Positions 3,176 to 59,309 of a stretch of DNA of 64,000 bases are shown in pieces (position 1 is the stretch's first letter; every line of letters starts with the position of its first letter). The stretch comes from a virus. The translations under genes were made by a program, and so were the position numbers. The notes beneath the pieces were generated by a model. That model made no database searches and was not told the origin of the DNA. It saw nothing but the letters and a program-made list of their open reading frames with translations. The stretch covers positions 95,508 through 159,507 of IMG/VR virus record IMGVR_UViG_3300037137_001027; one strand, 5' to 3'.

Positions 3176-3880
3176 ATGATGACTTTCAGGGAATATGTAG
3201 TTAGACGGGAGGCGAGTTCTAACATATTTCAAAATGCGGGGGCTGGAAGGGGGAGTATGGCTAGTGACGCCAGGGATGTAGTAAGTACACTTGGTTTTGC
3301 TCCTGCTGGAGCGATTGCGGCACCTTATGCAGCGGCGAAGGGATTTTTAGGAACGACTCCTGGCAAGTATCGTTCGATGGTGCGTGGTAATCCATATCTT
3401 TCAGACACGCCAGAGAGGACGAAGGTATTAGCTGGGAAGGCGTATGAAGACAGTAGTAGTTGGTTGTTAGATCGTGTTGAGCGAGAGAAGGTGCCACAGG
3501 TAAGGGGCAGGTTAATAACATCTTTACAGCAGGCGGTACAGGAATTGGACCAACATTTTCATTCTCAGCAACCGACGAAGATTACGGCTACGGGGCAGAT
3601 GGTAGGTCAGCAGGCAACGGGAATGAGTAATTTCTTTGCATTACCAGCTTCGATTATTGCGGGTATTAAGCAGGCGGCGAAGAATGTCATAGACACGTTA
3701 AATCCTGCGTATCAGAATCAATCAAATGAGTGGGCAGAGAGTGTAAACAAGATGGTATTATCTTTGGATGCTTTGAGGTCGGTATTACCAATGGAGTTGG
3801 TAGACTCATATATTAAGACATTTTTACATAATTTGGAGAAGGGCTGGGGATCAAGGGCTAGAGAAATAGGAAGGAGTTAA
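3176..3880 (+). CDS. putative internal head protein
   Basis: N-terminus MMTFREYVVRREA (capsid-targeting-like); TAGATA box 5 nt before ATG. Confidence 0.55.
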   Translation: MMTFREYVVRREASSNIFQNAGAGRGSMASDARDVVSTLGFAPAGAIAAPYAAAKGFLGTTPGKYRSMVRGNPYLSDTPERTKVLAGKAYEDSSSWLLDRVEREKVPQVRGRLITSLQQAVQELDQHFHSQQPTKITATGQMVGQQATGMSNFFALPASIIAGIKQAAKNVIDTLNPAYQNQSNEWAESVNKMVLSLDALRSVLPMELVDSYIKTFLHNLEKGWGSRAREIGRS

Positions 3881-3892
3881 TATATAATCATT

Positions 3893-4114
3893 ATGGTTAA
3901 GACATTTTTAGATTGGGTAAAGATCAAGGAATCGACGGCTGCTAAGAGGGCAAGACGGGCTGCTGCTGGTATTGACATAGGTAAAGGACCGAGTATTGCA
4001 GATGCAGCAATTAATAGTTACTCTACTGCACCGCCTGCAATAAAGGATGCTATTGTAAAGCGTAACAAGCATGAGAAGAAGAAGGGTTGCGACTCTAAGC
4101 TTCCGCCGAAGTAA
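3893..4114 (+). CDS. small basic putative internal head protein
   Basis: MVKTFLDWVKIKES; TATATA box 6 nt before ATG. Confidence 0.55.
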   Translation: MVKTFLDWVKIKESTAAKRARRAAAGIDIGKGPSIADAAINSYSTAPPAIKDAIVKRNKHEKKKGCDSKLPPK

Positions 4115-4472
4115 GTCGGTGTTCCCATTCTTGTAGTCGATGGCCTTTAATTCTCTTTGCACCTTTACAGGTATCGCAAATGCCATTACTTTCAAAGCCT
4201 GCACGGAAGCCAGTAGGGATACCTTTTAGGTCTTTACAATCACGGCAATGCAGACCTTTTTCTTCGATTTCATTTTCTCTGAGCCAAGTCATAAGGCAGT
4301 TAGTATTACAGAAATAAAAGGGCCAAGTTTCCATTTCATGATGGTGGCACTTTTCGCACAAATGGCTTTCAATATAGAACTTAAGTTCAAAGTCGAACAT
4401 GCCTGATTTCTTGCATTGGTCGCAATGGATGATACTAAGCATAAAGCTCCTTAATCTGGATCGCCCCACCAA
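4095..4472 (-). CDS. multi-CxxC zinc-finger protein
   Basis: CDQC, CEKC, FCNTNC, CRDC, CDTC; true start probably the internal MLSII. Confidence 0.65.
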   Translation of the reverse strand: MVGRSRLRSFMLSIIHCDQCKKSGMFDFELKFYIESHLCEKCHHHEMETWPFYFCNTNCLMTWLRENEIEEKGLHCRDCKDLKGIPTGFRAGFESNGICDTCKGAKRIKGHRLQEWEHRLTSAEA

Positions 4473-4681
4473 CCAGGAGGGCAGCCTGCTTTTTGGTATT
4501 CCTCCATCATTTTTTTATCGTGTTCTTTGCTTGCCAGGTCTAATTGTTCTTCATAATCAACATGGGCGCTCCAACCGAGGAGCGCCCAATGTTTTACGGA
4601 GTTTCTTTTTGGGGCTGGGACTTTATGTTTATAATTGTCCCACCATTCTTGGAAGCCTTCAGGAATTTTTGCTTTTGTCAT
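4451..4681 (-). CDS. hypothetical protein
   Basis: TAATG coupling with upstream gene. Confidence 0.55.
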   Translation of the reverse strand: MTKAKIPEGFQEWWDNYKHKVPAPKRNSVKHWALLGWSAHVDYEEQLDLASKEHDKKMMEEYQKAGCPPGWWGDPD

Positions 4682-5007
4682 TAGACACTCACAGCAGCTA
4701 GACTTTGCTTAGTTAAGAGGGCTGGATAGTCACCACTATCGAACTTTTCAATGAATTTAGAGACTGCCGATGGGTAGGCAACGACATGATCTTCACCTTT
4801 ATAGGTGAATTCTAGTTCTGACGTTACAGAAAGTCCCTTCAAATTCTTGAATTGTTTTCTGATGACTTTAGCGATTGGACAATTATTACCATCAGCCAGT
4901 ACGCCCTTGATTTTCAATGCAGTAAGATTTTCTGCAATCTTATTGGGGCCAGAACCTAGTGTCTTCAAGAAAGTTACAATTTCTTTGTCAATTTGTGTTG
5001 CAGCCAT
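4681..5007 (-). CDS. hypothetical protein
   Basis: ORF with AGGA SD; part of minus-strand small-gene run. Confidence 0.6.
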   Translation of the reverse strand: MAATQIDKEIVTFLKTLGSGPNKIAENLTALKIKGVLADGNNCPIAKVIRKQFKNLKGLSVTSELEFTYKGEDHVVAYPSAVSKFIEKFDSGDYPALLTKQSLAAVSV

Positions 5008-5419
5008 GTTTCACGTCCTTTTTCCATTTACAGTAGGTTAATAGTGAAGATACAATCAATCCAAACAGGATCATACCACCGAATATCCAATCATGGTAGA
5101 GAAATTGAGTCTTTTTGTCAACAAAAAAATCTATGGTTAGTGCGACAAGGAAAGCGAAGCCAAACCAATACAAAAAGAACGATCTGAAAAGGTCTGCTCT
5201 TTTTTCTTTCCTGTTACGTTCGGTCTGTGCTTGTTCCGTCTGGCCTGTAAGTTCGTCTAGCTTATCAGCCAGTAATCTGACTTCATTAATCAGGAAAGTA
5301 GTTTCTTTTACATGGTGGTTGTCCAAGTCTTTATAACGATCTTCCCAGGACTTGGATTCGTCCTCGGTATATCGTTTAACTTTGATCCACTTATAATCGG
5401 CATAGTGTTCTTTGTTCAT
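4988..5419 (-). CDS. membrane protein (2 C-terminal TM)
   Basis: ATG 5419 overlaps upstream stop (ATGA); two hydrophobic segments. Confidence 0.6.
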   Translation of the reverse strand: MNKEHYADYKWIKVKRYTEDESKSWEDRYKDLDNHHVKETTFLINEVRLLADKLDELTGQTEQAQTERNRKEKRADLFRSFFLYWFGFAFLVALTIDFFVDKKTQFLYHDWIFGGMILFGLIVSSLLTYCKWKKDVKHGCNTN

Positions 5420-5754
5420 AGGATAAAAGCGAAAAAGATAAATGTTAAAGCTAGAAATATCACACAAAGACGCCAGATGGTTCCCCACCATCCTAAAGCC
5501 AAGCCGTTTGGATGGTCTATTTGCCATTCACAATAATCCATTGAACGTTCTCGTTCCATCCAACCATAGTCTATAAACTCTGTTAATTTGCCGTTAATAT
5601 ACAATTTAGTAGGATTTCCGTTTGGATCAAGAGAGGCATCTATTTCTGCCCAATTACCATTTTTCTCATATCGCAGGACATTACGGATTTCATCTAACTT
5701 CCATTTGGTTACAGGGTCTTTATTAGTATATCGCGTGCTTAGATAGTCTTTCAT
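5416..5754 (-). CDS. hypothetical protein, C-terminal TM
   Basis: AAGGAG SD; hydrophobic C-terminus. Confidence 0.6.
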   Translation of the reverse strand: MKDYLSTRYTNKDPVTKWKLDEIRNVLRYEKNGNWAEIDASLDPNGNPTKLYINGKLTEFIDYGWMERERSMDYCEWQIDHPNGLALGWWGTIWRLCVIFLALTFIFFAFIL

Positions 5755-5879
5755 TTCGACATACTCCTTTGTTGGTTTACCAGGAACCCCAAGATCAAAA
5801 AGCCACAGCCATTAGGTAATATAAGTCCAGATTTCCCTGGAAGTGCAAAGCCAATTACCTAACTGAATTCCCAGCCTTA

Positions 5880-6026
5880 CTATAACATTTCGGACAAAGT
5901 GTGACATACCTCTGCATGAGTGCAAGTTGCGATTCCTTCATCCTTTTTAAGTTTCTTGTCGCACCAAGAACACTTCTTTTTAGGATGGCCCTCGCCAACA
6001 CCCGCAGATACTATTTTAATTTTCAT
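5880..6026 (-). CDS. small Cys-containing protein, possibly frameshifted zinc finger
   Basis: MKIKIVSAGVGEGHPKKKCSWCDKK...; adjacent frame continues LCPKCY. Confidence 0.4.
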   Translation of the reverse strand: MKIKIVSAGVGEGHPKKKCSWCDKKLKKDEGIATCTHAEVCHTLSEML

Positions 6027-6216: not shown

Positions 6217-6217
6217 T

Positions 6218-10972: not shown

Positions 10973-11765
10973 TCAATAGTTCGCCAATGGTGATTAAAGG
11001 GGATGGTTTTTCGAAGCGGTCAATTTCCGCAGGACACATCTCGCAAATAGATTCGTGTTTTCTGGAAATAAAATTATCAAGTTCTTCATCAGTTGCCGTA
11101 TGTTCTAAAGGCTTATATTCTAGGTAATGGTCCCATTTAGGTGAAATGTCGGGCCAACGTTTCTTTTGCAGTTGAAGATAAGCAATCATTGGACACTTAT
11201 AGATTTTACCATCTAGTATTTGCAAACAGTATTTACAGGGGCAGATTTTCCAACTATCTTCGGGGCGATTATCTTCATAGGGCAAAACATCTGGTCCAAA
11301 GCCCTTATAACGGCGTGTCCAATTTTTGCCATCCCTGATACTAAAAGTAATTTCGTTATCATGTAGAAAACTTATAACTTTGTTCCACTGTTGATTAAAC
11401 TCATTTGATTCACCATGTTTAGTAATAATTAGGTTAATTTTTAGTTCCTTGAGAAGTGGTCCCAGGTTTGGAAATTTGGGAAGTAGGAAGCCATTAGTAA
11501 TGAGTTCAATATTACATTTCCAATGGTTCCGAGCAATCCGAACAAATTCTTCAATTCTAGGGTTAAGTAAGGGTTCACCACCCAATATACAAAATGTTTT
11601 GGGGTTTAATCTCTTGCTCCACAAGCCCATTTGGTGGTCAGCGTCTTCTGGAGTAATAAAACCTTTATGACCATTGTTAGAGAAGTGGCTACAGCTTTCG
11701 CATGTGAAGTTACATGCATGAGAAGCATGAATTTCTAGTTTAATAATGTCTTTCAAGGAACTCAT
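10950..11765 (-). CDS. radical SAM protein with C-terminal Cys cluster
   Basis: CNFTCESC, LGGEPLL, ITNG, C..C/KC/CEMC. Confidence 0.9.
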   Translation of the reverse strand: MSSLKDIIKLEIHASHACNFTCESCSHFSNNGHKGFITPEDADHQMGLWSKRLNPKTFCILGGEPLLNPRIEEFVRIARNHWKCNIELITNGFLLPKFPNLGPLLKELKINLIITKHGESNEFNQQWNKVISFLHDNEITFSIRDGKNWTRRYKGFGPDVLPYEDNRPEDSWKICPCKYCLQILDGKIYKCPMIAYLQLQKKRWPDISPKWDHYLEYKPLEHTATDEELDNFISRKHESICEMCPAEIDRFEKPSPLITIGELLTKLRPKS

Positions 11766-12159
11766 AGGTTGTAGTCTCTGTGCTGACGAACATCATGAAT
11801 CACAACCGATTGCAAATTAGGCCATTTTGCTCTTAGGGTTTTACCAAGTTGCACGAAAGCAGGAATGTGTTCTTCCCTATCATCGAAAATTTCTACCATT
11901 TGCACTTCTTGATTTATAAGGCGGTTTAGGATTACAAATTCTTTATAGTCATAGGTATCACCTTTATGTGGGTAGTTTGGGTGTTGGGTAAGGTCTTTTT
12001 GCCCACGAAAGAAGTATTCGTCTGGATGGATTCCGTACTTGTTCAATATTTCTTTGACTTGATTTTCAAATTTAGCTATACGGCCTGTCATTACTACAAC
12101 ACAATTCTTTTGATACCAGGAGATACTGCCTCAACAAATTTTCTGAATTTTAGTTGCAA
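11762..12159 (-). pseudogene. HAD-superfamily phosphatase (PNKP/Swiss-Army-Knife RNA-repair type), internally deleted and frameshifted
   Basis: 5' piece TTG 12159 MQLKFRKFVEAVSPGIKRIVL* (GAGGAG SD); 3' piece in another frame VVMTGR...K...IFDDREEH; DxD motif I absent. Confidence 0.6.
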
Positions 12160-12161: not shown

Positions 12162-13790
12162 TTACTCCTCGGTATCATCGCCATGATCTTCGTCGTGGTT
12201 GTAATGATCGTCATGATCTTCTTCTTCATGATCGTCATGATCTTCTTCTTCATGATCTTCGCCACCAGATAGGGCTTCATCTTTTGAACTAAGTCTCTTG
12301 CGGAACTTGTCGGTTTCTAGCCATTTAATTGCGTCTGAGAATTCTGAACCTTGTGGAGTACGACCACCGAAAAGTTTGGCAATTGATGGGTTAATACTTT
12401 TCTTACCTTTTTCATCGGAAACAAAACCTTTAGTGTCAAGTTCATGATTTAGGAAGTGATGCAGAACATCTTCTGGTTGCTTGTTCATGCTGCCCCATTG
12501 TTTTACTAAACTTGGCACCATGCCAGTCTTATGAAAATTCTTCTTCATGTCGAAGAACTTATCCAAGAACAGTTTTGGATTCTTGCCATGTTCACTCATC
12601 CATTTTGAGAATTCAATAAGTGTAACAATATCACGCACTTCGTCATCTGACCAAGCGCCCTGGTGGAGCATTTTCTCTACTTTAGCAGGTGGATTAGCTC
12701 TTAGCAACCATGCAATTGCCAATCGCTTTTCTTTTTTATCAGAGAAGTCTTCGGCTGAGTCAAGTTTGAAAGTCATATCAGGGAACACGGTATCTAATAG
12801 ACCCATTTCCTTATACATTTTAACATATTGGACAGGATCGGTGTCTGGATGTTGTAAGCCTTTAAGGAATTCTTCTTTAATCTTTTCACGGCTAATTGAT
12901 GGTAAATCTTTGATATCTTTGATAGCAGACTTAACATCGTCGCCAATCTTGGTATTTTTGCCGTGTGAAGCGACCTGGCGCACATATCTCAATACGCGGC
13001 CTTGATCTTCTCCAAGTCTTTCTTTCGGGTTGCCTACGAATTCAATTTCACCACGGCGCAAGTGATGTGCGCCACCGTGCGGATCGACAAGTTTAGCATT
13101 AGCCCCGTCAGCACTTGTCAAAGGAATGTACATAGCATTAACAGTAAAGTCTCTTCTGGCTGCATCGTCATCCAAAGTACCGAACTCCATGCTGTCTGGA
13201 GTCTTGCCGTCACCGCTGCCTTTGGAACCTTTTCTAAATGTGGCTATTTCGAATTCTTCTCCATTGACTCTGGCGTTAAATACATATTCTTTTCCACCAC
13301 GATCCCAGCCCTTTGCGTGGAAAACCTTGTTCTTTTGTCCTGCTTCTGGATGCTTGTCATATTTGGTGGTTTGTGACTTACCATCGCCTTGTGGTTTAAC
13401 TTCAGTAAATCCAGCGCTTCTCAGGATTAAACGAATTTCATCTGGTCCTGCATCCGTTACTAAATTGTAGTCTCTAGGAGTTTTGCCCAAGAGGTGGTCA
13501 CGGACTGCGCCACCAGTAAGATACAATCCCTTCTTCTTTAGACGTGGGGAGGTTTCACCTTTTGCTGGGTCAATGGTGGTTAACTTTTGCGGATAACCGT
13601 CAGGACCAGGCAGGGAAACCTTATCACTATCTAAGAAAGCTTTAGCAATAACCCTTAAATTAGGGTGATTTTCACCATCAATAACAAATGGCTTGAAGTC
13701 TGTATCATCAGCCAGTTTGACTTCTGAAGATGCCTTCTTAGCTTCTGTATTCTCTTTCAATCCAACAAATTCTAAAAATGTTTTTCTCAT
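12162..13790 (-). CDS. CCA-adding enzyme / poly(A) polymerase-family nucleotidyltransferase
   Basis: GGAVRDHLLGK.P.DYN, EIATFR, DAARRDFTVNAM, DPHGG, ED..R.LR, SREKI..E; ATG 13790 or GTG 13802. Confidence 0.9.
   Translation of the reverse strand: MRKTFLEFVGLKENTEAKKASSEVKLADDTDFKPFVIDGENHPNLRVIAKAFLDSDKVSLPGPDGYPQKLTTIDPAKGETSPRLKKKGLYLTGGAVRDHLLGKTPRDYNLVTDAGPDEIRLILRSAGFTEVKPQGDGKSQTTKYDKHPEAGQKNKVFHAKGWDRGGKEYVFNARVNGEEFEIATFRKGSKGSGDGKTPDSMEFGTLDDDAARRDFTVNAMYIPLTSADGANAKLVDPHGGAHHLRRGEIEFVGNPKERLGEDQGRVLRYVRQVASHGKNTKIGDDVKSAIKDIKDLPSISREKIKEEFLKGLQHPDTDPVQYVKMYKEMGLLDTVFPDMTFKLDSAEDFSDKKEKRLAIAWLLRANPPAKVEKMLHQGAWSDDEVRDIVTLIEFSKWMSEHGKNPKLFLDKFFDMKKNFHKTGMVPSLVKQWGSMNKQPEDVLHHFLNHELDTKGFVSDEKGKKSINPSIAKLFGGRTPQGSEFSDAIKWLETDKFRKRLSSKDEALSGGEDHEEEDHDDHEEEDHDDHYNHDEDHGDDTEE
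12204..12260. repeat. 24-bp tandem repeat encoding His/Asp/Glu tail
   Basis: atgatcgtcatgatcttcttcttc x2 plus partial; EDHEEEDHDDHEEEDHDDH. Confidence 0.85.
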
Positions 13791-13814
13791 ATACCTGCTC
13801 ACCTATTATTATAT

Positions 13815-14216
13815 TTACGGCTTAAGGCCCAATTTCCACAAAATTATACTGCCAATTACTACCACACCAACCTTGAAAATAAAATCAACGATACTAGACC
13901 ACTTATTATTTGTTTGCATCATCTCTTTCTCGACATGAACTAATCGTTCTGAAAGATGCTCAATCTTACCATCTATTATATTAACGTCGTTCTTAAGATC
14001 AGTGATTAATTGTGTGCCATTTTTGTTTTCTAGTATAGCAATACGATTTATTAAAGTCATCTGATTTTCATAGAGCTTCTCGATTCTATCCTTAGACTCG
14101 TTGTTGCTCTCGATAAGCACTTTCATCCTCTCGTCAATACGAGCGGTCATTTCGAAAACAAGTTTCAGGGAATCATTAACTTCTTTAAATTTTTCTTCCA
14201 TAGATATCCTTGCCAT
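13815..14216 (-). CDS. coiled-coil protein with C-terminal membrane anchor
   Basis: Heptad pattern then FIFKVGVVVIGSIILWKLG. Confidence 0.65.
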   Translation of the reverse strand: MARISMEEKFKEVNDSLKLVFEMTARIDERMKVLIESNNESKDRIEKLYENQMTLINRIAILENKNGTQLITDLKNDVNIIDGKIEHLSERLVHVEKEMMQTNNKWSSIVDFIFKVGVVVIGSIILWKLGLKP

Positions 14217-17050: not shown

Positions 17051-17180
17051 ATACAAACTCCCTTTCAATTACATTACATATTACTATCTCCATTTCCAAA
17101 GCAACAACAAGTTTCATTGGTAGCGAAGCAGCATGACAAAAAGATACTAAAATTCACTACCGAGTGCAATAGATATTCCG

Positions 17181-17669
17181 ATGATAAAGTTTATTGAATT
17201 CATTGACAAAAAGGAAAGAGAGACGAAGAAACAACTCAAGATCATTGAGCATATCCTTCTCGCTCACGAAATGAACGTCAAAAGTCATCTGGATGACGAT
17301 GATCCATACCTTTTTGTTTACAACACAAAGAAAAACACTTTCTTCGAAGGTATTAGAATTTACAAAGTTGGCGATCAAATCTCTTTCAGGGTTCAAAAAG
17401 ACGAAAAAACAGAACCTTTTGGTCGTGCATACCCGATGGACATTGAAGAAATGTTTGAAGATTTAGTTACAGATTATAAACCTGAAGAAGCTGGCAGGAA
17501 AATAATGGCAGCAGTTACCACCGAGGTTAAGAAATTTTTTGACCGAAGTGCTATTGCTGAAAAAGAGTTGCGTGACAAAGAGTTTGAACGTGATCCGTGG
17601 GGCAAGGTGGTTGTCCGAAGTTCCGATTATGGGATGGATTACAGCAACCTCACATATATGAAGGCTTAA
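17181..17669 (+). CDS. hypothetical late protein
   Basis: MIKFIEFIDKKE; TAGATA box 5 nt before ATG. Confidence 0.65.
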   Translation: MIKFIEFIDKKERETKKQLKIIEHILLAHEMNVKSHLDDDDPYLFVYNTKKNTFFEGIRIYKVGDQISFRVQKDEKTEPFGRAYPMDIEEMFEDLVTDYKPEEAGRKIMAAVTTEVKKFFDRSAIAEKELRDKEFERDPWGKVVVRSSDYGMDYSNLTYMKA

Positions 17670-17671: not shown

Positions 17672-18001
17672 ATGGGTGGGTTCCAAGAGTGGGTGGGCAA
17701 GAAGCGAGTTGTTGATAATTTTGAATTAGGGCTTGGAAAATCTATACCAGAAAACAAAAACGCTGGTGGTGGCTTTGATCCCACAAGCAAAGAACAAGTT
17801 AAAAAATTCAAGAAAGTAGATTTAATAACGTTACCCGTTGAAGGAACTAACTGTGGCAACTGTATGTTTATGGTTCCAGTTGATAAGGCAAAAGGTGTCG
17901 GTTGGTGTAATCACAAGGATGTTTTAGAGTTTGTTACCCCAAAAATGTGTTGTGCAATGTGGAATCACACAGATGTTAAACGGCAGTGGGAAACTAAATA
18001 A
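17672..18001 (+). CDS. HiPIP-like Cys-motif protein
   Basis: NCGNCMFM-x9-GWC-x8-V-x4-CC..W; N-terminus MGGFQEWV. Confidence 0.5.
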   Translation: MGGFQEWVGKKRVVDNFELGLGKSIPENKNAGGGFDPTSKEQVKKFKKVDLITLPVEGTNCGNCMFMVPVDKAKGVGWCNHKDVLEFVTPKMCCAMWNHTDVKRQWETK

Positions 18002-18004: not shown

Positions 18005-18535
18005 ATGCCAATTACTCCACGGCAAGTTCAACAATTGGGTAGTTTCTGGAAGGCTATCGACTATCCAACTCCTGCTGTGCCAACCCCGAAAATAGTTCAC
18101 AAAGGTAGTATTGTAAATTTTCACTATGCTGGGCAGCGGACGAACAAGATGGTCCACGACCCTTACCCGTTGGTATTAGTATCAGATATATACAGTGATG
18201 CTATAAGAGGTGTGAATTTAAATTACTTAACAGTCCCTTACGTTAAGTATATGATTAACACTTATTTAGACAAACCATTCGCTTACTCCTTTATAAAAGG
18301 CAATGCTTACTTAACAGGCGGGAAGGATGACCCTGGTACGTTCAGAACTTATAAGAGGAGTGGGATTAGTCAACTAAGAATGATGGACAGTGATTTCTTG
18401 AGGGGTATTGCGGCAGTGTCGAGGACTTTAGATGCAAATGAATTGGACCAAATAAGGATGCAGATAGAAGAGTTAATAAAGTATCAATTAAATCAACCTG
18501 TTGCTCAACCAGGAGAGGTACAACAAAATTACTGA
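18005..18535 (+). CDS. T4 gp2-like DNA end protector
   Basis: G....FHY...HDPYPLVLV...RGVNLNYL...FRTYK. Confidence 0.65.
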   Translation: MPITPRQVQQLGSFWKAIDYPTPAVPTPKIVHKGSIVNFHYAGQRTNKMVHDPYPLVLVSDIYSDAIRGVNLNYLTVPYVKYMINTYLDKPFAYSFIKGNAYLTGGKDDPGTFRTYKRSGISQLRMMDSDFLRGIAAVSRTLDANELDQIRMQIEELIKYQLNQPVAQPGEVQQNY

Positions 18536-18614
18536 TATCTGCATAGATACTGTAATTCCTTTTCGCAATTCATTTTATTAATTAATAGTTTTTTAGAAAG
18601 AGATAAATAACAAT

Positions 18615-27324: not shown

Positions 27325-29598
27325 ATGGCATCTAAAAACGTAAAAGAGCATATTAAAGCTTTATATGACTTAGTTCAAGCTCATGAAAAAAGACTAAGGG
27401 AGATGAACTTTCAGGCTAATTATAAAAAGATATTCAAGAAGAAGCTCCAATATTACCAACAGAGGATATCGTATCGCGGACTACACTTAGCTTTATGCGT
27501 AGATACACGCGATCCACTAAAACAGAACAGAGTTAGATATTTCAGTCCAATCTTGCATAATGGCTTAATGTTTAGCCAAAAAGCTCTATTTGATGGGCAG
27601 CCTGGCGAGAGCCAAGTTACTAAATTAGAGGCTTTAGATTGGGCGTGGCCTGTTTCCTCAATGGGTGGTTTTGACGATACTGGATTAAATTGGGTTCCAC
27701 CTCCAGGGTCAATGTTATGTTTAATGTTTCTGCATGGCTCCCCACAAATGGTATTTTACTTAGGTAGCACTTGGTACAGAGATAAGGGACCAATCCAGCA
27801 CGACAATTGGAACTATCACATCCAAGAATATTACAAGATTTGGGAAGGACACCGTAATGGTTACATGGTAGGCGCAAACGATGAATCACAGGTTTACCCA
27901 CACAACAACACTGATAATTACCAAGGTTACGATGTAGACACACAAACAGATGTGGAGTTCTCCCCCGACTCGGTTACTAAAACTACCTGGCCACATCAAT
28001 ACAGTATTTCCAGTCCAGAAAAACACCGCGTTATCATGGACGACGGTGATCCAAAGTGTAATAGAAGATGGAAGAGATTAGAAGTAATTTCAAGTATGGG
28101 TAATCTTTTATTAATGAAAGATGACCCATATCATCCATGTGGTGAATGGCTAAATCCACAATGTTTTATTTCTTATGTTGACGTAGTGCCAAAAATTTGC
28201 GCTGTGTCGATGACAATTTATACTGATCCTCTCAACAATATAATAAAATTTGTTCCAACCGATGTACCTTATACTTGTCCGCAAGGTCCAGAAAACTGTA
28301 ATACAATTCCAGAAACTCCAAGTTTAACAGTAGACCAAGAATATGTTGGGACTGGCACTTTCTCCTTTCCGTCAGGTGGCGTGACAGGCGTTGGATACGG
28401 TGGCGCTCGCATCCCTGTCGTGGTAGGGAGAGAAGATTGGTGTCCACCAAAGACGCCATTTCCTGACGTTATTCTACCAGAAATACCGAAAGATTGTTTA
28501 CATGGCATTATCGACGGTCTAACCGACTTTTGTTTCAAATTTAACAACTATGGTAAGAACAAATATCAAAAACACAGACACGATTGTTACCCATATTATT
28601 GTCAAGATTGCGGGTTAAATCAGTCGGGCATTCAAGTTCGTTCTCGTTCAGGGGCCACTATAGTATTTGATGATTCTGTGGAGGAGCCAAGGGAAAAGCC
28701 AGAATGGGAACGAACTTTGAAGCCTTTCGATTATGACGGTTGCACAGGTAATTTCCGTGGTAGAACTTACTGGCGTTCCGCAACAGGTCATTATATCGAA
28801 ATGGTTGACTATGAAGACCAACCACACTTACGAAGTAAACGCAATGGTATTAACATCGTTACTGCTTGTGGTAATCAAATTTGTTTGAATGATGAAACAC
28901 TGCCAGGCTGTGTTGCTGGGCCATTGCGCGGAATTCACATGAAAAGTACAGCCAATCATACTTTTGATATGGTTGACGAACTTAATAAACAATGCAGTGC
29001 TGACCGTAATGGTTGTTCTAAGACTGGTCCTTACGCAAAGAAAGCGTTCGTAAGACTTCGAAGTGGTTACGGAATAACGGTAACATTATGCGATTTCCAT
29101 GACCAGACGAAGACTGACCAGCAGTATTTCCAGATTATGTCGCCTCAAAAGGATAATCTTATTCGTGGCCCACACGTTCTTCATATGCAAGAACGCCCAC
29201 ATGGGCCAGGACAAATCTTCCTGCGTGCAGGTGGAGATTATATCGTTTACTCTTACGACAAATTCGTGGAAGTCGTGGGAGAAGAGAAGGATAATCCATC
29301 CGACAAAATGGAGTTTATTTCTCGCCATAAGTTAGTGAGCGTTAAAGACGTTTATTATAATCGTGCTGGCACTCATGTATTTTGGGCTGACGACTATATA
29401 TTCTTACTGGCTGGAAAGGATTGCGAGCCACAAAGCCCTGTTGGACAGGGGCAACCTTGTGTGTATCCAGTTGTAGTCGCTTTCCAACAAATTCCTGAGT
29501 ATGTCTCTGCTGTTACAGGACTTAAGGCAAGCGAACATGTGTTTGCTTCCGCACTACATGAGCCAGAGCCGTGTGAAGGAATAGCCAGCGATACTTGA
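27325..29598 (+). CDS. baseplate central spike (gp5/VgrG-like), Cys-rich
   Basis: OB-fold DPLKQNRVR...WAWP...VPPPGS....F..GSP...YLG; repeated S..GH.I...D units. Confidence 0.8.
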   Translation: MASKNVKEHIKALYDLVQAHEKRLREMNFQANYKKIFKKKLQYYQQRISYRGLHLALCVDTRDPLKQNRVRYFSPILHNGLMFSQKALFDGQPGESQVTKLEALDWAWPVSSMGGFDDTGLNWVPPPGSMLCLMFLHGSPQMVFYLGSTWYRDKGPIQHDNWNYHIQEYYKIWEGHRNGYMVGANDESQVYPHNNTDNYQGYDVDTQTDVEFSPDSVTKTTWPHQYSISSPEKHRVIMDDGDPKCNRRWKRLEVISSMGNLLLMKDDPYHPCGEWLNPQCFISYVDVVPKICAVSMTIYTDPLNNIIKFVPTDVPYTCPQGPENCNTIPETPSLTVDQEYVGTGTFSFPSGGVTGVGYGGARIPVVVGREDWCPPKTPFPDVILPEIPKDCLHGIIDGLTDFCFKFNNYGKNKYQKHRHDCYPYYCQDCGLNQSGIQVRSRSGATIVFDDSVEEPREKPEWERTLKPFDYDGCTGNFRGRTYWRSATGHYIEMVDYEDQPHLRSKRNGINIVTACGNQICLNDETLPGCVAGPLRGIHMKSTANHTFDMVDELNKQCSADRNGCSKTGPYAKKAFVRLRSGYGITVTLCDFHDQTKTDQQYFQIMSPQKDNLIRGPHVLHMQERPHGPGQIFLRAGGDYIVYSYDKFVEVVGEEKDNPSDKMEFISRHKLVSVKDVYYNRAGTHVFWADDYIFLLAGKDCEPQSPVGQGQPCVYPVVVAFQQIPEYVSAVTGLKASEHVFASALHEPEPCEGIASDT

Positions 29599-29605
29599 GG
29601 AATAG

Positions 29606-30019
29606 ATGAGATATAAAGGCATAGCTTATCCGCTCGTTAAACATCCGCAAGGATATTTTCACAATGCTGCTAACGATGTGGCTCAAATAAAGTCTAATCT
29701 TGCAGCAATTATACTTACGGAGCCAAATGATAGGATATTTATTCCTTTTTTTGGCGTGGGATTAAGAAAGGTTAATTTCAATGCGCCTATAGAAATAGTC
29801 AGAAGCGAAATTAAGGTCAAAATAGCAGTGGCTATTAAGAAATGGGAACAGCGAATTCAAGTTGAAGATATTGTTGTGGACTTGGCCAGAAATGAAGAAA
29901 ATAAATTTATAATTAAAGTTACTGTTTTGTTTATTGATCCTCTTAACGTCAATAATATTGAAAGCTTAGTAGTTTATAAATCTCTTGGAGGAATTGATGG
30001 CAGAAATATGCCCTTTTGA
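29606..30019 (+). CDS. baseplate wedge gp25-like
   Basis: IKSNL..IILT.P.DR...P.FG.GL; AIKKWEQRI. Confidence 0.9.
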   Translation: MRYKGIAYPLVKHPQGYFHNAANDVAQIKSNLAAIILTEPNDRIFIPFFGVGLRKVNFNAPIEIVRSEIKVKIAVAIKKWEQRIQVEDIVVDLARNEENKFIIKVTVLFIDPLNVNNIESLVVYKSLGGIDGRNMPF

Positions 30020-43776: not shown

Positions 43777-44604
43777 ATGCTAATTAAAAATCACATAAAC
43801 AAGAATGAATATTGTTTGTCAAGAAGCGGTCATTGGGTTAGAAATTTTACCAAACCTATAATTAAGCCCATTGACATAAATGACATTACGCCTTTAGAAG
43901 ATATTAAGCTCATTGTAGAGAATGAATTCAAAAACAGTCTCAAAAAGTATCCACCTTGGGAAGAAGGTTCGCATGAAAAAGCAGTCATAATAGGTGATGG
44001 TTACGGGTTTGACGAAAGTTTGAAAGCCATTGAAGAACTGCCATCGGATGTAGTAATCATTGGGGTCAATAAAGCATTTGCCAAATGGCAAAGTCAGCGA
44101 AGGTTGAATTATTATGTAGTAAACAACCCATACCAGGAATGTTTATATTATTATCCGCAGATAATTAGGTCTTGGCCAAAATGCATTGCTTCTACAAGAA
44201 CTTTTGCCCATTTTCTAGAAGTTTATAAAGGTTCATTAAACACTTACTCACCTACGGCTGGTGACTTTTATAACGGTCCATTCTTGGACCAAAGTAATTT
44301 TATTGATGATTATAGAAATCCAGTATGTGCTGCCGTAGGGATATCTTATAAACTTAATGTAAAGAAATTAGCCCTTATGTCAACTTTAGAAATGTACAAT
44401 GATGAGCGGCCTGGAGTGGATAAAATAAGGGATGGATTATGGATTTATCCACAACAAAAGGTAGCACACAACTTAATTGACGCTAATTTATATTGGATGC
44501 AAAAAGCAAAAATTAATGTAGCTTACACTAACCACGATCCAGTTTATGAATTTGCTACATATATAAAATTAGATGATTTGAAAAGGTTTTTCAATGATGG
44601 ATAA
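43777..44604 (+). CDS. Maf/DUF115-type glycosyltransferase-like Rossmann protein
   Basis: AVIIGDGYG...IIGVN.A...YYVV.NP...A..++..L..KK. Confidence 0.55.
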   Translation: MLIKNHINKNEYCLSRSGHWVRNFTKPIIKPIDINDITPLEDIKLIVENEFKNSLKKYPPWEEGSHEKAVIIGDGYGFDESLKAIEELPSDVVIIGVNKAFAKWQSQRRLNYYVVNNPYQECLYYYPQIIRSWPKCIASTRTFAHFLEVYKGSLNTYSPTAGDFYNGPFLDQSNFIDDYRNPVCAAVGISYKLNVKKLALMSTLEMYNDERPGVDKIRDGLWIYPQQKVAHNLIDANLYWMQKAKINVAYTNHDPVYEFATYIKLDDLKRFFNDG

Positions 44605-44917
44605 AAATAATAGGAAGGAACCTAATTTTTCACTAAATGATTTTAGAAAGTGGATGAGCAAACAAAAAAAGTTTGAGTCTCGTAAGCCGAAGTACCGTGG
44701 ATGCATTGTTGAATCAAAAGTAAGTTTTAAAAGACTTATCACTAAGATGGACGTTGACCAAGGTGATCTTCAAGAAATGGCGAAGGACTTCAAGCGTAGA
44801 GGTGGGACCATCCTAGAGTGTGACGGAGATAATATATTGCTGGTCGAAGTTAAATCAGGGACATTCCGAATACCTAAATTCTTCGTAAATATACTTAGCT
44901 CATACGGCGAGTCATAA
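44594..44917 (+). CDS. hypothetical protein
   Basis: FSLNDFRKWM...FES motif. Confidence 0.6.
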   Translation: MMDKNNRKEPNFSLNDFRKWMSKQKKFESRKPKYRGCIVESKVSFKRLITKMDVDQGDLQEMAKDFKRRGGTILECDGDNILLVEVKSGTFRIPKFFVNILSSYGES

Positions 44918-45251: not shown

Positions 45252-45384
45252 TTTTTTTCTCCAAAATAACCTTAAATAAAATCTCTAGTACCATTTTACT
45301 ATGATAATCAAAAGGCTCAAGCTGTTTAAATAAACAACCAAAGCTTTCATGTACTAATTTAGTTTTTTCCTGAGATTCTGTCAT
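45214..45384 (-). CDS. small hypothetical protein
   Basis: MTESQEK start with AAAGG SD. Confidence 0.4.
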   Translation of the reverse strand: MTESQEKTKLVHESFGCLFKQLEPFDYHSKMVLEILFKVILEKKNGQRLHLPDKKE

Positions 45385-46429: not shown

Positions 46430-47455
46430 ATGATACTAGGACTCAAAAAGAAACAAAAACCGCTTGAACCCACTCTAAGGGATTTCTACGACAAGAGAAA
46501 CAAAGTGGTAGTAATTCGCAATTCAAGGGGCATTGGTGACATTCTCAATTGCAGGATGCTGTTTAAAAATTTCAAAAACTTACATCCAGACCTACATCTA
46601 ACATTTGCATGTTTTGAGGAGTATGCAGAGTTACTTAAAAATCATCCGTATCTTGATGCTGTGGTTGATGTGGAAAAACTAAACAAAAATGATTATATGA
46701 CTTCTTACGATATTAGCAATTGCTGTATCAAATATGAGTCCCGTGAAATGAGCAAAAACACCAAGCACCGTGCCGAAATTTGGGCAGAGTATTGTGGTAT
46801 TAAACTATTAGATTACGACATGCATCTTCCTTACATCGGCAACGATAAAATAATGGATGGTATTTTAGCATTACGAGAGTTAAGAAATAGGTCTTTATTA
46901 CAGTACAACAAGAATGGTCGAAGTGTGTTTTTCTCTCCATTTGCATATGAAAAATTAAGGTCTTTAACTCTGGAGCAAATTAATGAAACTGTCAAAATGT
47001 TGAGACGTAAGGGTTTGTTTGTTTATTCTGCCCACAATGAGCCTCTAGAAGCATTAAGCAGCCTGGAAGTACCTGTGTTGATTGGAAAAACGATAACAGA
47101 TTGGATGAGTTATATCCATGCCGCAGATTATGTTGTTACGGTTGATACTTCTAACTTTCATTACGCGGGGGCGATAAATAAACCACTTACAGGTATTTTT
47201 ACTCATGTTGACGGTAAATTAAGAGGTAAGTTTTATGACTTTATCCTTGTTCAAAAACACAGAGATAATGGTGATTGGCCCTGTGGTGGACCTTGCTATA
47301 ACTATCTTTATTGTACCCATCCAAAGTGCGATGCTCCTGTTACGGGGCCAAATAACCAAAGAACTCCATTGGGTTTACGACCATGCGTTACTGAATTAAC
47401 ATTGACTGAAATAGAGACAGGAGTTGATAAAATGCTCTCAAAGTGGGCTATATAA
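46430..47455 (+). CDS. glycosyltransferase family 9 (heptosyltransferase-like)
   Basis: RGIGDIL, LL..HPY.D, AD.VVTVDTS..H.AGA..KP. Confidence 0.85.
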   Translation: MILGLKKKQKPLEPTLRDFYDKRNKVVVIRNSRGIGDILNCRMLFKNFKNLHPDLHLTFACFEEYAELLKNHPYLDAVVDVEKLNKNDYMTSYDISNCCIKYESREMSKNTKHRAEIWAEYCGIKLLDYDMHLPYIGNDKIMDGILALRELRNRSLLQYNKNGRSVFFSPFAYEKLRSLTLEQINETVKMLRRKGLFVYSAHNEPLEALSSLEVPVLIGKTITDWMSYIHAADYVVTVDTSNFHYAGAINKPLTGIFTHVDGKLRGKFYDFILVQKHRDNGDWPCGGPCYNYLYCTHPKCDAPVTGPNNQRTPLGLRPCVTELTLTEIETGVDKMLSKWAI

Positions 47456-53618: not shown

Positions 53619-53951
53619 ATGCCAGGACCAGATCACAAAGCATATGCAGGTTTTAGGGGTACGATTCGAGCAATGTTGACTCATCACCCTGACAAGTTCA
53701 GTAAGGAAGCCTGTGGCAAGAAGGGTACGGGCAAACTTTGCCCTTATGCTATTGCCACCAAGGAAAAAGAAGAAGGTGACACGGCCCATTATAAAGAACT
53801 GCCACATACAACAAAAGGCGAACCTAAAAAGAAGCCAGAATTCAAGGATGAATCTTTTGCTGCTTATGTCGAGCATCGGGACTTAACGGAAGCTAAAAAG
53901 AAAAAGAAAATGACTGTTAGTATGCTAAATGCAACTGGCGGGATGCCTTAA
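53619..53951 (+). CDS. small basic late protein
   Basis: TAAATA box; ESFAAYVE...LTEA motif. Confidence 0.6.
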   Translation: MPGPDHKAYAGFRGTIRAMLTHHPDKFSKEACGKKGTGKLCPYAIATKEKEEGDTAHYKELPHTTKGEPKKKPEFKDESFAAYVEHRDLTEAKKKKKMTVSMLNATGGMP

Positions 53952-54139
53952 TGCCATTCAAAAGTAAATCACAAAGACGTGCGTGTTATGCTGCACATGA
54001 TCCTAATTGGGATTGTGGAGAATGGGAAGCCCACACCAAGGACAAAAAACTCCCTGAAAAAACCAAAAAACAAGAAAATTTTAGTTTTAGAGGTTGGTTA
54101 GATGATTACAGTAATAATTCCAGTATACAACAACGCTGA
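53951..54139 (+). CDS. small basic late protein
   Basis: MPFKSKSQRR..YA...WE..T..K.LPEK; TAATG coupling. Confidence 0.6.
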   Translation: MPFKSKSQRRACYAAHDPNWDCGEWEAHTKDKKLPEKTKKQENFSFRGWLDDYSNNSSIQQR

Positions 54140-54800
54140 TTATACTGAACAATGTATCAAATCTATTTGTTTAAAAAATATTCAAGAAATCATAGTGGTT
54201 GATAATGGATCAACTGACAATACTCCCCAATTACTCCAATCCTTGCCAGTTAAAGTAATAACATTAGAAAAAAACATAGGATTTGGCAAAGCTTGTAATA
54301 TGGGTCTGCATAATGCTAAAAGTGAATACATCTATTTCCTGAACAACGACACCATTTTGAACACAACCACTATTACAACTTTACTTGATAGAATTCAAGA
54401 TAATAGACTTGGTGCAGTTGGGTCTAAGGTTATATCACCTGAAGGAAAGATAAGAGAAGCGGGCGGCAACATTAACAGTAGTTATACATGGCAAAGGGGA
54501 ATAGGCTCAGATGGTAACGAGTATAATGATTTTGAAATAGTTGATTATTGTTCTGCCTGTAGTTTACTAACTAGAAAATCATTAATTACAAAAGGCTTTG
54601 ATGAAGTGTATGGGTATGGATATTATGAAGATGTAGACTTATGTATGCAAATAAAAAAACAAGGATATCTTATAGGTTATGAGCCATTATCAACAATTAT
54701 ACATTTTGAACAAACAACAAGTAGAAATGTAATCAAAGATGTTACTCATTTATCGAATACTAATAGATCAAGATTCTTACACAAGTGGGAATTAGTGTAA
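54102..54800 (+). CDS. glycosyltransferase family 2
   Basis: VIIPVYN, VVDNGSTD, N.GF..ACN.G, FLNND, GFDE, YEDVD. Confidence 0.92.
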   Translation: MITVIIPVYNNADYTEQCIKSICLKNIQEIIVVDNGSTDNTPQLLQSLPVKVITLEKNIGFGKACNMGLHNAKSEYIYFLNNDTILNTTTITTLLDRIQDNRLGAVGSKVISPEGKIREAGGNINSSYTWQRGIGSDGNEYNDFEIVDYCSACSLLTRKSLITKGFDEVYGYGYYEDVDLCMQIKKQGYLIGYEPLSTIIHFEQTTSRNVIKDVTHLSNTNRSRFLHKWELV

Positions 54801-56447: not shown

Positions 56448-57051
56448 AATCAGGTTTTCTAATCAGCAATTTCCACACTTCTACCACGTCATCACCAAAC
56501 ATCTTGGACGGGACACGAAGATGTGTTCTCAATTCTATAAATTCAGAACAGATGAAATCTCGCGGGTCTTCGATGGACTGGTAGGAATAAATTCCACCAG
56601 TTTCTTTTACCTGTTCTTCTTTTATCTTATTCTCGTAATAAAAGCCAGATACTAACGCCACCTGTATTGGAAATACGTTAAATATCCTACGGTAGAAAGA
56701 AAATTTGTCCCATTTATCCATGCAGCATTCTGTGGAAAACAAACTGACAAAGGCATGGATCGGGAATCCAGCTTTCTCCGTGATTACTTTGTCGGGAACC
56801 CGCTTGTAGTCACAGGCGTAACAGTCGTGATGGGATGGCGGATTCAGGTCCAGGCCAAGATAACCGCTGTGTATTCCATGTTGCCTGTATTCACAACATT
56901 GTCCGCACCCAAAGTCAATAACGTTAAGGGGATACTTCCACTGCGGGAAGGCGGATTCGAAGGTGCGAAGCATGTAATTATGGGCATGTCTGACGGTAGC
57001 TTCCTGTAAGTAATTTTTATATTCATCGAAAAACTCTTGATTGTAACTCAT
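56437..57051 (-). CDS. SAM-dependent methyltransferase-like protein
   Basis: VIDFGCG, YLGLD. Confidence 0.6.
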   Translation of the reverse strand: MSYNQEFFDEYKNYLQEATVRHAHNYMLRTFESAFPQWKYPLNVIDFGCGQCCEYRQHGIHSGYLGLDLNPPSHHDCYACDYKRVPDKVITEKAGFPIHAFVSLFSTECCMDKWDKFSFYRRIFNVFPIQVALVSGFYYENKIKEEQVKETGGIYSYQSIEDPRDFICSEFIELRTHLRVPSKMFGDDVVEVWKLLIRKPDYVN

Positions 57052-57071
57052 TTTTATTGTAACCTTTCAAC

Positions 57072-57854
57072 ATGAGGAAAAAACTAGAACTAATGAAAAT
57101 AGAACATTTGAGCGTTTCCAGAGTCGGTGTATGGGAACTTTGCCAACAACAGTACAAGTACAAATACCACGAAAAAATACCATCCCTTGAAGAAGACCCA
57201 ATCTATTTTACTTATGGATCAATTGTACACAAAATTGCCGAAAGATACATAGAAAGTAAAGGCGAAATATTGATTTCTGAGATTGCCAATGATGTTTTGA
57301 ACGGCAAAATACCATTGGATGATGGCAAGAAGAACATCAAACTGCCCCAGGAATATAAGAGCAAGATAGTCGATCATATTCGGGCAATTAAGAAAATATC
57401 TGACCAGCTAGGGTTCGACGGTCACACGGAATGGGAATTCAATTTTGACTTAGACCCACCACACAAAAAGATCGTTATGGGCTATATCGACCGCTTGGTG
57501 CAAAAAGGTGATAAATTCTGGATTTTAGACTATAAAACAACCAAAAAAGGTCCGTGGCGCAAAGGTATAAAAGAGATCACAAATGATTTACAGTTAAAGA
57601 CTTATGCCAGAGTAGTTCAGAAAGAGTTCAATGCCAAAGCGGAAAACATTAAAGCAGCATTATATTACCTTGAAGGGCCAGAGTTAGTAGGCGCGACATT
57701 CAGTGAACAATCCCTGGATCGGGTTGAAGAAGAATTACTAAAATGCTATAATGAAATTGCAAACACTAATCCAAACAAGGTCTTAGGTAACGTCGGACAG
57801 CATTGTAGTAGATGCAACTATAGAAAAATTTGTCCTTTTTATTCATTAACATGA
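57072..57854 (+). CDS. RecB/Cas4-like PD-(D/E)xK exonuclease with Fe-S staple
   Basis: LS.S, C..Y, G..VH, GYIDR, ILDYKT, QL..Y, CSRC.....C. Confidence 0.9.
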   Translation: MRKKLELMKIEHLSVSRVGVWELCQQQYKYKYHEKIPSLEEDPIYFTYGSIVHKIAERYIESKGEILISEIANDVLNGKIPLDDGKKNIKLPQEYKSKIVDHIRAIKKISDQLGFDGHTEWEFNFDLDPPHKKIVMGYIDRLVQKGDKFWILDYKTTKKGPWRKGIKEITNDLQLKTYARVVQKEFNAKAENIKAALYYLEGPELVGATFSEQSLDRVEEELLKCYNEIANTNPNKVLGNVGQHCSRCNYRKICPFYSLT

Positions 57855-58276
57855 GCTTAACTTTAACAATATCTCATAATATGTTTTTGGACCGTCAACA
57901 ACGCTATGATCTTTTCGAAGGAAAAGAAGTAGATGTTGTTGGGGTCAGTGTTCCAGTGTGGTACTATCAAAAGAAAACATCGGAGCCAGGCAATGAAGTA
58001 TTCTGTAAATACAGACTAATACCTACAGACTATAAGATATTCGTAAAACATAATGATGAAGGATATGAAATATATCTCCCAAAGAAATCTTTTAATCCAG
58101 AAGATAACAGAAACAATCCTTTGACATTAAAAAACATATTGGATCATAAGGATGGCGGAATTGAATGGATAGCTTTTAGGCAATTTGGCAAGGCTAAGAA
58201 AAACAAAAGGTCAGTTGATATCATCCATTTTGTGGAAATTAAAACTATAGAAGAGTTTGAAAAAACTACATCATAA
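57851..58276 (+). CDS. hypothetical protein
   Basis: ATGA coupling to nuclease gene. Confidence 0.6.
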   Translation: MSLTLTISHNMFLDRQQRYDLFEGKEVDVVGVSVPVWYYQKKTSEPGNEVFCKYRLIPTDYKIFVKHNDEGYEIYLPKKSFNPEDNRNNPLTLKNILDHKDGGIEWIAFRQFGKAKKNKRSVDIIHFVEIKTIEEFEKTTS

Positions 58277-59086
58277 CATAATTGTTGGTTTCGTTCTTTT
58301 GTTTCTAAAATGTTCTCTAACATTATCTTCACGATACATGTCGGCTTCTGTTGGATGAATAATAGCAGTGTGAGAATGTGTAATTGGAATTAGTCCAGTC
58401 GGCGTTGAGAAGCTTGGCAGCGATTGCCGCCATTTCATTTCCATAATATGTCCTATATTCTCAACCCTGCATACATTACAACCAAGTAACCAAGTCGATA
58501 TCTGGTCGTGGGCAAAGTGGATTAAAGGATATAGTTTGTCAAACTTATCAGCAGGCATTAAGCCAATTTGTTTAAAAAATTTGAAACAATGATTGGTCCA
58601 CATCATACAGGGGCCAGCCGCCATTTCAGTTCTGAAATTATATGTGTACTCACCCATAAATCCAGAAGTTCTTAAAGAACTATGAAACCCAAAATCTTTA
58701 CTAGGAGTATGCCAAATACTGCCAACAAAAAATATGTCTGTATCTACTACCTTGCTGGACATTATATCAATGAATGGTCCGACACATAATGCATCAGAAT
58801 CCATAGTAATAACATGATGATAACCCATCGGTTTAAAGTAATCCAAAGCATGAATGATTGTGCGTAAAATGCCACGTCCCCAACCATTCTGTTCGGAAGA
58901 AACAAATACATGTTCCTTGCCATATCTACTTCTTAATGAAGATGCAGCTTCTTTATTAAAATCAATTGCAAAAACCACATCATAATTTCCCTTGTTATAA
59001 TATCTTATTGAATCGGCAGTATCGACCAAGTAATGTGGGTTTTTGTGACCTACTACCATCACTAGAGTTTTTGGATTTTTTAGCAT
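58271..59086 (-). CDS. GT-A glycosyltransferase-like protein
   Basis: DT.DSI, NGWG, ITMDSD, GP.M, HDQ. Confidence 0.6.
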   Translation of the reverse strand: MLKNPKTLVMVVGHKNPHYLVDTADSIRYYNKGNYDVVFAIDFNKEAASSLRSRYGKEHVFVSSEQNGWGRGILRTIIHALDYFKPMGYHHVITMDSDALCVGPFIDIMSSKVVDTDIFFVGSIWHTPSKDFGFHSSLRTSGFMGEYTYNFRTEMAAGPCMMWTNHCFKFFKQIGLMPADKFDKLYPLIHFAHDQISTWLLGCNVCRVENIGHIMEMKWRQSLPSFSTPTGLIPITHSHTAIIHPTEADMYREDNVREHFRNKRTKPTIML

Positions 59087-59111
59087 CGGCCCCCTCTACC
59101 ATATATAATAC

Positions 59112-59309
59112 ATGGTAAAGTTAAATTTTAGATCATGGTTGGAGTCCGTTTTTGGAGCGGGAGATGTGAATGGGCCAACCCCCGCCTCAGTAGCACCAGA
59201 ATTAATTGCTAAAAATATAGGTGGGGCTTACCCCACCTATGACCTACGCCCGCTACCACATGAAAAACACATGAAAAGAAATACTATGAAGAAGCAAAAG
59301 AAACATTAA
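59112..59309 (+). CDS. small putative internal head protein
   Basis: MVKLNFRSWLES; TATATA box 4 nt before ATG; basic C-terminus. Confidence 0.55.
   Translation: MVKLNFRSWLESVFGAGDVNGPTPASVAPELIAKNIGGAYPTYDLRPLPHEKHMKRNTMKKQKKH

Follow-up and report, generated by a model that had tools for sequence, protein, structure and literature searches.

An N-terminal sequence shared by unrelated proteins of a huge phage is a likely T4-type signal for loading cargo into the head

Introduction

Why should a nucleotidyltransferase, a cysteine-rich protein and several small proteins without resemblance to one another begin with the same few residues? The question is raised by a 64,000-nucleotide (nt) stretch of viral DNA, positions 95,508 to 159,507 of the IMG/VR record IMGVR_UViG_3300037137_001027, which is called the window here and forms the final 64 kilobases (kb) of a linear 159.5-kb contig. 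Seven open reading frames (ORFs) of the window carry this N-terminal tag. Mullaney and Black reportedly described in 1996 a capsid targeting sequence (CTS) on the internal proteins IPI, IPII and IPIII of phage T4, and the original prediction for the window was that a similar tag loads a defined payload into the phage head. To our knowledge, it is not known which huge-phage proteins enter the cell before phage gene expression, because almost none of these phages can be cultured. Judging from the sequence comparisons below, we consider it likely that the shared N-terminus is a T4-type CTS that marks head cargo. From the sequence, an unusually large set of proteins is predicted to be carried in the head and, probably, injected into the host.

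Results

The nearest GenBank record, LR756511.1, is a 595-kb unannotated “uncultured phage” with 63-75% amino acid (aa) identity. It was retrieved whole, crude gene calls were made for it and for the contig, and it served as an independent test genome that was not used in defining the pattern. All ten strings quoted in the original prediction are present where they were placed, and the seven quoted N-termini (3176+, 3893+, 12159-, 13790-, 17181+, 17672+ and 59112+) are true ORF starts. They have in common M-x(1-4)-F-x-[ED]-[WFY]-[VIL], often with a Glu 5 or 8 residues past the Phe. The tagged genes are the following:

3176..3880, plus strand: 234 aa, beginning MMTFREYVVRRE, ORF start confirmed
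3893..4114, plus strand: 73 aa, beginning MVKTFLDWVKIKE, TATATA box at 3881-3886, 6 nt ahead of the ATG
12094..12159, minus strand: 21-codon remnant of a HAD phosphatase, TTG start, beginning LQLKFRKFVE
12162..13790, minus strand: nucleotidyltransferase of the CCA-adding / poly(A)-polymerase family, 542 aa, beginning MRKTFLEFVGLKE, PF01743 at aa 89-249
17181..17669, plus strand: 162 aa, beginning MIKFIEFIDKKE, TAGATA box at 17170-17175, 5 nt ahead of the ATG
17672..18001, plus strand: Cys-rich protein, 109 aa, beginning MGGFQEWVGKK, starting 2 nt past the stop of the 17181 gene
59112..59309, plus strand: 65 aa, beginning MVKLNFRSWLE, TATATA box at 59102-59107, 4 nt ahead of the ATG
Genome positions 29292-29795, minus strand, outside the window: beginning MKFKEYYRLHE, with a separate TAnATA box immediately upstream of the ATG
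Genome positions 46858-47130, minus strand, outside the window: beginning MKTFNEFLE, likewise with a separate TAnATA box immediately upstream of the ATG

The strict pattern F.[EDKS][WFY][VIL], required to begin at residues 2-7 and with its expectation taken from the internal rate, gave 6 N-terminal matches in the contig against 0.70 expected (P = 9e-5), a count made with a crude gene caller that missed three tagged starts. In LR756511 it gave 18 against 3.0 expected (P = 4e-9), and genome-wide N-terminal enrichment, a check proposed with the original prediction, is thus present in both. The motif starts form a sharp peak at residues 3-5. When every gapped residue pair in LR756511 was scanned without bias, F..W at residues 2-8 came out at the top (38 against 6.2 expected, P = 6e-18), followed in order by F.E, T....W, T...E and K.F; K-T-F-x-E-W therefore emerges without a prior pattern. 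The consensus from 59 candidates is M-K-T-F-x-E-W/F-L/V/I-E-x-K-E. Roughly 30 strict or 45 relaxed matches were counted in LR756511 and at least nine in the 160-kb fragment.

The resemblance could nevertheless be due to chance or to N-terminal compositional bias, picked out after the fact: the pattern was first defined on these same sequences, its core occurs 52 times internally in the contig, and some N-terminal matches, in the primase gene and at 45383, look fortuitous. Such an origin has a negligible chance of being correct and is effectively refuted by the test on the independent genome, by the rank of F..W in the unbiased scan, by the retention of the tag in orthologues down to about 40% identity, and by a search across IMG/VR, in which a DNA pattern for MKTFxEWLE matched 25 stretches on 23 contigs, compared with none for a scrambled version of equal composition. 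The more T4-like pattern MKTFxEFIxE matched more than 120 stretches in IMG/VR.

That the tag stands on otherwise unrelated proteins was also confirmed. After trimming of 16 residues, 63 tagged proteins fell into 58 BLASTP clusters, linked by four orthologue pairs between the contig and LR756511, one paralogue pair and nothing else. The mean pairwise nucleotide identity of the 36-nt tag region is 49% and synonymous codons are mixed (TTT 22, TTC 11), so the tag is conserved at the protein level and is not a DNA repeat. Tagged genes are concentrated in the window (7/83, against 2/215 in the other 95 kb of the contig, P = 0.002). This remainder consists mostly of early gene arrays, and the two tagged genes within it (29292-29795 and 46858-47130) oppose the strand of the surrounding plus-strand arrays.

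Most tagged genes had been said to lie behind a late-type box, and this holds: TAGATA or TATATA stands 4-6 nt ahead of the ATGs at 3176, 3893, 17181 and 59112, none of which has a Shine-Dalgarno sequence, and TAAATA precedes 13790 at a greater distance. The boxes needed for comparison are:

3165..3170, plus strand: TAGATA, 5 nt ahead of the 3176 ATG, no Shine-Dalgarno sequence
13812-13817, minus strand: TAAATA of the 13790 gene, 21 nt before its start
18604..18609, plus strand: TAAATA, the reference late-type box, 5 nt ahead of the ATG of the 1840-aa tape-measure gene

The arrangement at the tape-measure gene is shared by the structural operon starts at 18005 (box 17995-18000), 14268, 47462 and 53619, which have TAAATA or TATATA 4-7 nt ahead of the ATG and no Shine-Dalgarno sequence. 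This layout suggests that the late mRNAs are leaderless, and it appears that the tagged genes are late genes, expressed along with the structural ones. In LR756511 a TAnATA box lies 2-9 nt before the ATG in 22/38 tagged and 59/995 untagged genes (odds ratio 22, P = 2e-16), and the tag matches in IMG/VR display the same layout. A Shine-Dalgarno sequence is present in 13/38 tagged LR756511 genes and in the majority of the distant 162-aa homologues. A leaderless start and the tag can hence occur without each other, because there are leaderless structural genes without a tag and tagged distant 162-aa members with a Shine-Dalgarno sequence.

This separation bears on a second explanation, in which the N-terminus is an amphipathic helix with another purpose, serving as a signal for some other localisation or for the binding of a partner, or needed in the coding region for leaderless late mRNAs to be translated. 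Many tagged genes are indeed of the leaderless type, and in one modelled protein the tag helix is continuous with the body. A need of leaderless translation is hard to reconcile with the untagged leaderless genes (tape-measure, 18005, 14268 and 47462), with the tagged genes that do have a Shine-Dalgarno sequence and with conservation at the level of protein instead of codons. The remaining evidence on this explanation comes from the head genes of relatives.

The contig breaks off inside the gene of the terminase large subunit:

63418..64000, plus strand: start of the terminase large-subunit gene

In LR756511 the head module (portal, protease, scaffold and capsid) lies directly past the terminase gene, which is the break point of the contig. 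There, a Peptidase_S77 gene (525953-526621, 95.9 bits) stands beside a Gp23 capsid gene (290 bits) and next to a gene for a scaffold-like protein (525018-525950), and homologues of gp20, gp17 and gp4 are encoded too. A closer relative of 341 kb, in which the 162-aa protein is 87% identical, also carries Peptidase_S77. Of the 23 IMG/VR contigs that matched MKTFxEWLE, most of which are small fragments, Peptidase_S77 was found in 12/23 and Gp23 above the cut-off in 14/23, and several short ones have their tagged genes no more than a few kb from the capsid gene. Three of the 23 contigs, estimated by CheckV to be 60-100% complete, have no match to a T4-type protease or capsid, which speaks for a helix with another purpose. 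The co-occurrence with Peptidase_S77 and the near-identity to a signal dissected in T4 are hard to explain under that assumption, however, and we regard it as quite improbable.

Since relatives that share genes with the contig measure 586-623 kb, as judged from contigs carrying homologues of one window protein, the contig is most likely about one quarter of a ~600-kb genome, and the completeness of 79% given by CheckV is probably far too high. The window itself contains a myovirus tail and baseplate module, the 1840-aa tape-measure gene and replication genes (primase, exonuclease); a megablast search with the tape-measure gene against GenBank phages gave no match.

The predicted cargo of the window comprises the nucleotidyltransferase, the 162-aa core protein, the Cys-rich 109-aa protein, the 234-, 73- and 65-aa proteins and the phosphatase remnant. 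Except for the nucleotidyltransferase, no tagged protein matched a Pfam family at E<=0.01, including the 234-aa protein at 3176, for which PHROGs gave a marginal match only (phrog_28671, unknown function, E 0.0053). At the 3176 locus the promoter and the tag (MLTFLEYVVRCDE) are kept in LR756511, and the protein body is unrelated. The LR756511 orthologue of the 3893 gene begins MKTFIDWLKVKE, and an adjoining tagged gene there begins MLTFMDWLKAKE. The orthologue of the 59112 gene begins MRLDFKQWAE, with a TAAATA box upstream. The small cargos could have an anti-defence role, as is suggested by analogy with T4, where IPI and IPIII work against host defences.

A tRNA-nucleotidyltransferase-like enzyme had been named as cargo; its family assignment (PF01743) and its tag on a 542-aa protein stand. 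The tag opens an N-terminal extension of ~88 aa, followed by the head domain from residue 89. Homologues from other phages align only from about aa 87-90, and the extension is absent from them. The orthologue in LR756511 is 75% identical, begins MRTTFLEFMGLKE and has the metal motif D-Y-D, in place of which the window protein has D-Y-N (13440-13520, minus strand, residues 94-119). Because the metal-binding D-Y-D of the relative is replaced, the enzyme may be inactive in this phage. The adjoining gene, announced as an RNA-repair-type phosphatase, proved to be broken, a tagged stub of 21 codons without the catalytic N-terminal half:

11762..12091, minus strand: C-terminal half of the HAD phosphatase in a different frame, recognised by aligning the three-frame translation to the LR756511 orthologue

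The deletion removes ~90 aa, among them the DxDGT catalytic motif, and comes with a change of frame; of the 203 positions of the HAD_SAK_1 profile, the C-terminal half matches only 81-183. The phosphatase is intact and tagged only in LR756511 (582920-583582), where it has 220 aa, begins MNLNFRQYVE and matches HAD_SAK_1. The D-Y-N motif next to a broken phosphatase suggests that this operon is decaying in the phage studied here.

The label “HiPIP-like” for the 109-aa protein is weaker than first stated, since the Pfam match lies below threshold (16.4 bits against a cut-off of 22). A sequence search of this Cys-rich protein against the PDB was without a match. Its LR756511 orthologue is 56% identical, begins MISFNEWQ and has its own TAAATA box. 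The gene of the 162-aa protein belongs to the core of the huge-phage group: 54 homologous proteins and at least 80 IMG/VR loci were found, and nearly all of them retain an N-terminal F-x-x-F-[VIL]-D-K-K. An AlphaFold model (predicted local distance difference test, pLDDT, 72.7) shows residues 4-28 as a single helix; a fold search of the model against the PDB returned nothing at E<=0.001.

The conservation of the 162-aa protein at these loci differs from what is expected of variable anti-defence cargo. It fits a third explanation, namely that the tag does target the prohead core, where most of its bearers would serve in assembly or as parts of the core, in the manner of T4 gp67, gp68 and gp22, and would be degraded or remain structural instead of being injected as active enzymes. 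Two large proteins of LR756511 with tag-like N-termini (MDFKEWY, MEFREWF) near the capsid gene, and the degenerate look of both enzyme cargos in the window, with a D-x-N transferase and a deleted phosphatase, point the same way. Most tagged proteins, however, are small and unrelated, lie in islands and are swapped between relatives, which is the pattern of the T4 internal proteins, of which at least two (IPI and IPIII) act in the host after entry, and the enzyme domains are intact in LR756511. We therefore see a small but real chance that the tagged proteins are mainly core components.

Discussion

The likely reading of the tag as a CTS of head cargo rests on its match to T4, on the head genes of relatives, on the co-occurrence with Peptidase_S77 and on the shared box. 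Computation supports this central part of the original prediction well; several of its details proved wrong or weaker. The T4 N-termini were read from NC_000866: ipII and ipIII begin MKTYQEFIAE, ipI begins MKTFKEF and gp61.1 begins MKTFKEFIKE. In T4 IPIII the first ten residues suffice for packaging (PMC9026906). Targeting by the T4 CTS depends mainly on residues 4 and 7 and processing on residues 8 and 10, and an Asp at residue 10 prevents cutting and leaves targeting intact (PMC9026906). The counterparts of residues 4, 7 and 8 in the huge-phage tag are the Phe, the aromatic residue at +3 and the aliphatic one at +4, and the targeting residues Tyr4/Phe7 of IPIII are matched by Phe with W/F/Y at +3, the most enriched pair in LR756511.

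A short N-terminal element like MKT[YF]xEF[IL]xE, which in the T4 internal-protein system is a propeptide of 10-19 aa, is therefore present here as well on otherwise unrelated proteins. In both, the signal comprises 10-13 N-terminal residues (MKT[YF][QK]EF in T4, MKTFxE[WF][LVI] here), with aromatics at both targeting positions and an aliphatic residue next, and is borne by otherwise unrelated, often small proteins. At the internal-protein loci of T-even phages the tag is retained and the body swapped (PMC3012670), and small islands of tagged genes with the same behaviour, as at the 3176 locus, are found here. The lineage also has homologues of the gp21-type protease, the gp23-type capsid protein, gp20 and gp17.

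The two systems differ in scale, with three internal proteins in T4, plus gp61.1 with its CTS-like start, against roughly 30 strict or 45 relaxed tag matches in LR756511 and at least nine in the 160-kb fragment. They also differ in that Trp is the commonest +3 residue of the huge-phage tag, and in that the predicted huge-phage cargo includes a nucleotidyltransferase, a HAD_SAK_1 phosphatase, a protein with a phosphoribosyltransferase domain and proteins of ~1000 aa. Many huge-phage tagged genes have the box 4-6 nt before an ATG without a Shine-Dalgarno sequence, and their system is known from sequence alone. T4 gene 61.1 (NC_000866 18966-19130, minus strand) encodes a hypothetical 54-aa protein.

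The injection of an enzyme has a precedent in T4 Alt, a packaged ADP-ribosyltransferase, which like gp67 and gp68 enters via the prohead core and is processed by gp21. The N-termini of these three proteins (MELITELF, MEGLIEAI and MLLIPETH) differ from the tag in lacking the F-x-x-aromatic motif. BLAST searches with T4 gp55, gp45, gp22, gp67, gp68, Alt and gp2 gave no match in the contig or LR756511. In the large phages of the phiKZ/SPN3US type, too, many internal head or ejection proteins are loaded and the protease is related to gp21 (PMC5694885, PMC7411985). Their ejection proteins have propeptides of mostly more than 100 residues, cut at A/S/G-x-E (PMC5694885, PMC7411985), whereas the huge-phage tag is a shared motif of ~10-13 aa at the extreme N-terminus and not a long protein-specific propeptide.

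We propose the following course of events. Many tagged genes would be read alongside the structural genes, from a TAnATA box 4-6 nt before an ATG that has no Shine-Dalgarno sequence. The first 10-13 residues would begin a helix, one face of which holds the invariant Phe together with the aromatic residue at +3 and the aliphatic one at +4, because of their spacing i, i+3, i+4. This face may dock the protein on the scaffolding core of the assembling prohead. Once the shell is closed, cleavage after a nearby Glu is probably the work of a prohead protease of the gp21 type (Peptidase_S77), and the cargo would be freed inside the head and would leave it together with the DNA at infection. An [LIV]-x-E within residues 7-22 is found in 19/38 tagged and 254/1020 untagged genes of LR756511 (P = 0.001), which is consistent with such cutting.

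Several results weigh against this reading. The predicted likeness to a cleavable T4 tag was found for the targeting part, which matches the NC_000866 sequences, but not for the Glu: counted from the Phe in the 59 candidates, it lies at +5 in 20/59 (34%), at +8 in 17/59 (29%, usually as K-E) and at the T4 position +6 in 7/59. Distant homologues of the 162-aa protein often have another residue in place of the +8 Glu, and cleavage may therefore not be universal; in the contig alone the enrichment of [LIV]-x-E (2/6) is not significant. In the AlphaFold model the tag of the 162-aa family is the start of a long helix running into the body, so that its conservation could be partly structural. No homologue of this putative cargo was found in GenBank phage records except LR756511, and none in a cultured phage. 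Genes for a gp21-type protease, a scaffold and a gp23-type capsid protein were not found on the contig, which stops inside the terminase gene, and the head machinery is accordingly deduced from relatives. No homologue of T4 gp55 was detectable by BLAST in the contig or LR756511, and the term “late” therefore rests on the box preceding structural genes. Lastly, the proposed comparison with early genes, taken as those with the early promoter GTTGTACT, gave tags in 0/64 against 6/234, which is the expected direction in an underpowered test (P = 0.35).

Loading of varied proteins by a CTS is a principle already stated in the T4 literature, and our findings are thus an extension of a known idea and not a new mechanism. 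What stands out is the number of tagged proteins, the enzyme cargo and how often tagged genes have a leaderless start of the late type. Among the papers searched, none was found to describe CTS tags in huge phages, which does not prove that no such paper exists. For the whole clade of ~600-kb phages we give even chances to the view that the T4-type tag has grown into a loading system of general use, packing some 30-50 proteins per genome, ~10 times as many as in T4, including RNA-repair and tRNA-end enzymes and proteins of ~1000 aa, many of them from leaderless late transcripts. If so, the tag would reveal, from sequence alone, which ready-made proteins are injected by phages that resist cultivation. 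If it works as in T4, it would be a cheap computational read-out of the injected payload of the clade and would point to candidate anti-defence and RNA-repair proteins acting at the onset of infection. Very distant T4-like head modules would then share, with hardly any change, a signal dissected in T4.

Further features

Internal or C-terminal copies of the motif at 44594, 53619 and 53951 had been offered as evidence. They exist, yet they are not above chance, given the 52 internal occurrences of the core pattern in the contig. The genes concerned are listed as doubtful:

44594..44917, plus strand: internal copy DFRKWM at residues 16-21, which the orthologue keeps at residues 10-15
53619..54139, plus strand: two genes with internal or C-terminal copies, SFAAYVE and FSFRGWL

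Two of the three copies are kept in orthologues. Three other candidates were rejected: the N-terminal match at 45383 is probably chance, with Leu in place of Phe in the orthologue; that of the primase gene (56447, minus strand) is probably chance as well, with no box upstream; and MTFPEFIHGEAE at genome position 51962 is not a tag, as it is internal to a gene with an early promoter and a Shine-Dalgarno sequence.

In LR756511 a second, diverged Peptidase_S77 paralogue (242543-242992, minus strand, 34.8 bits) lies distant from the head module. A few genes past the capsid gene (516905-521964, minus strand) are genes of 1076 and 486 aa with variant tags (MEFREWF and MDFKEWY) in which +4 is aromatic; the shorter of the two proteins has a phosphoribosyltransferase domain at its end.

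The gene at 53951 (62 aa) is truncated relative to its 182-aa orthologue in LR756511, which has a perfect motif copy, GFKEWLEE, at residues 45-52 followed by ~130 residues that are absent from the window copy. A glycosyltransferase-like gene at 54102-54800 overlaps its end, as if inserted.

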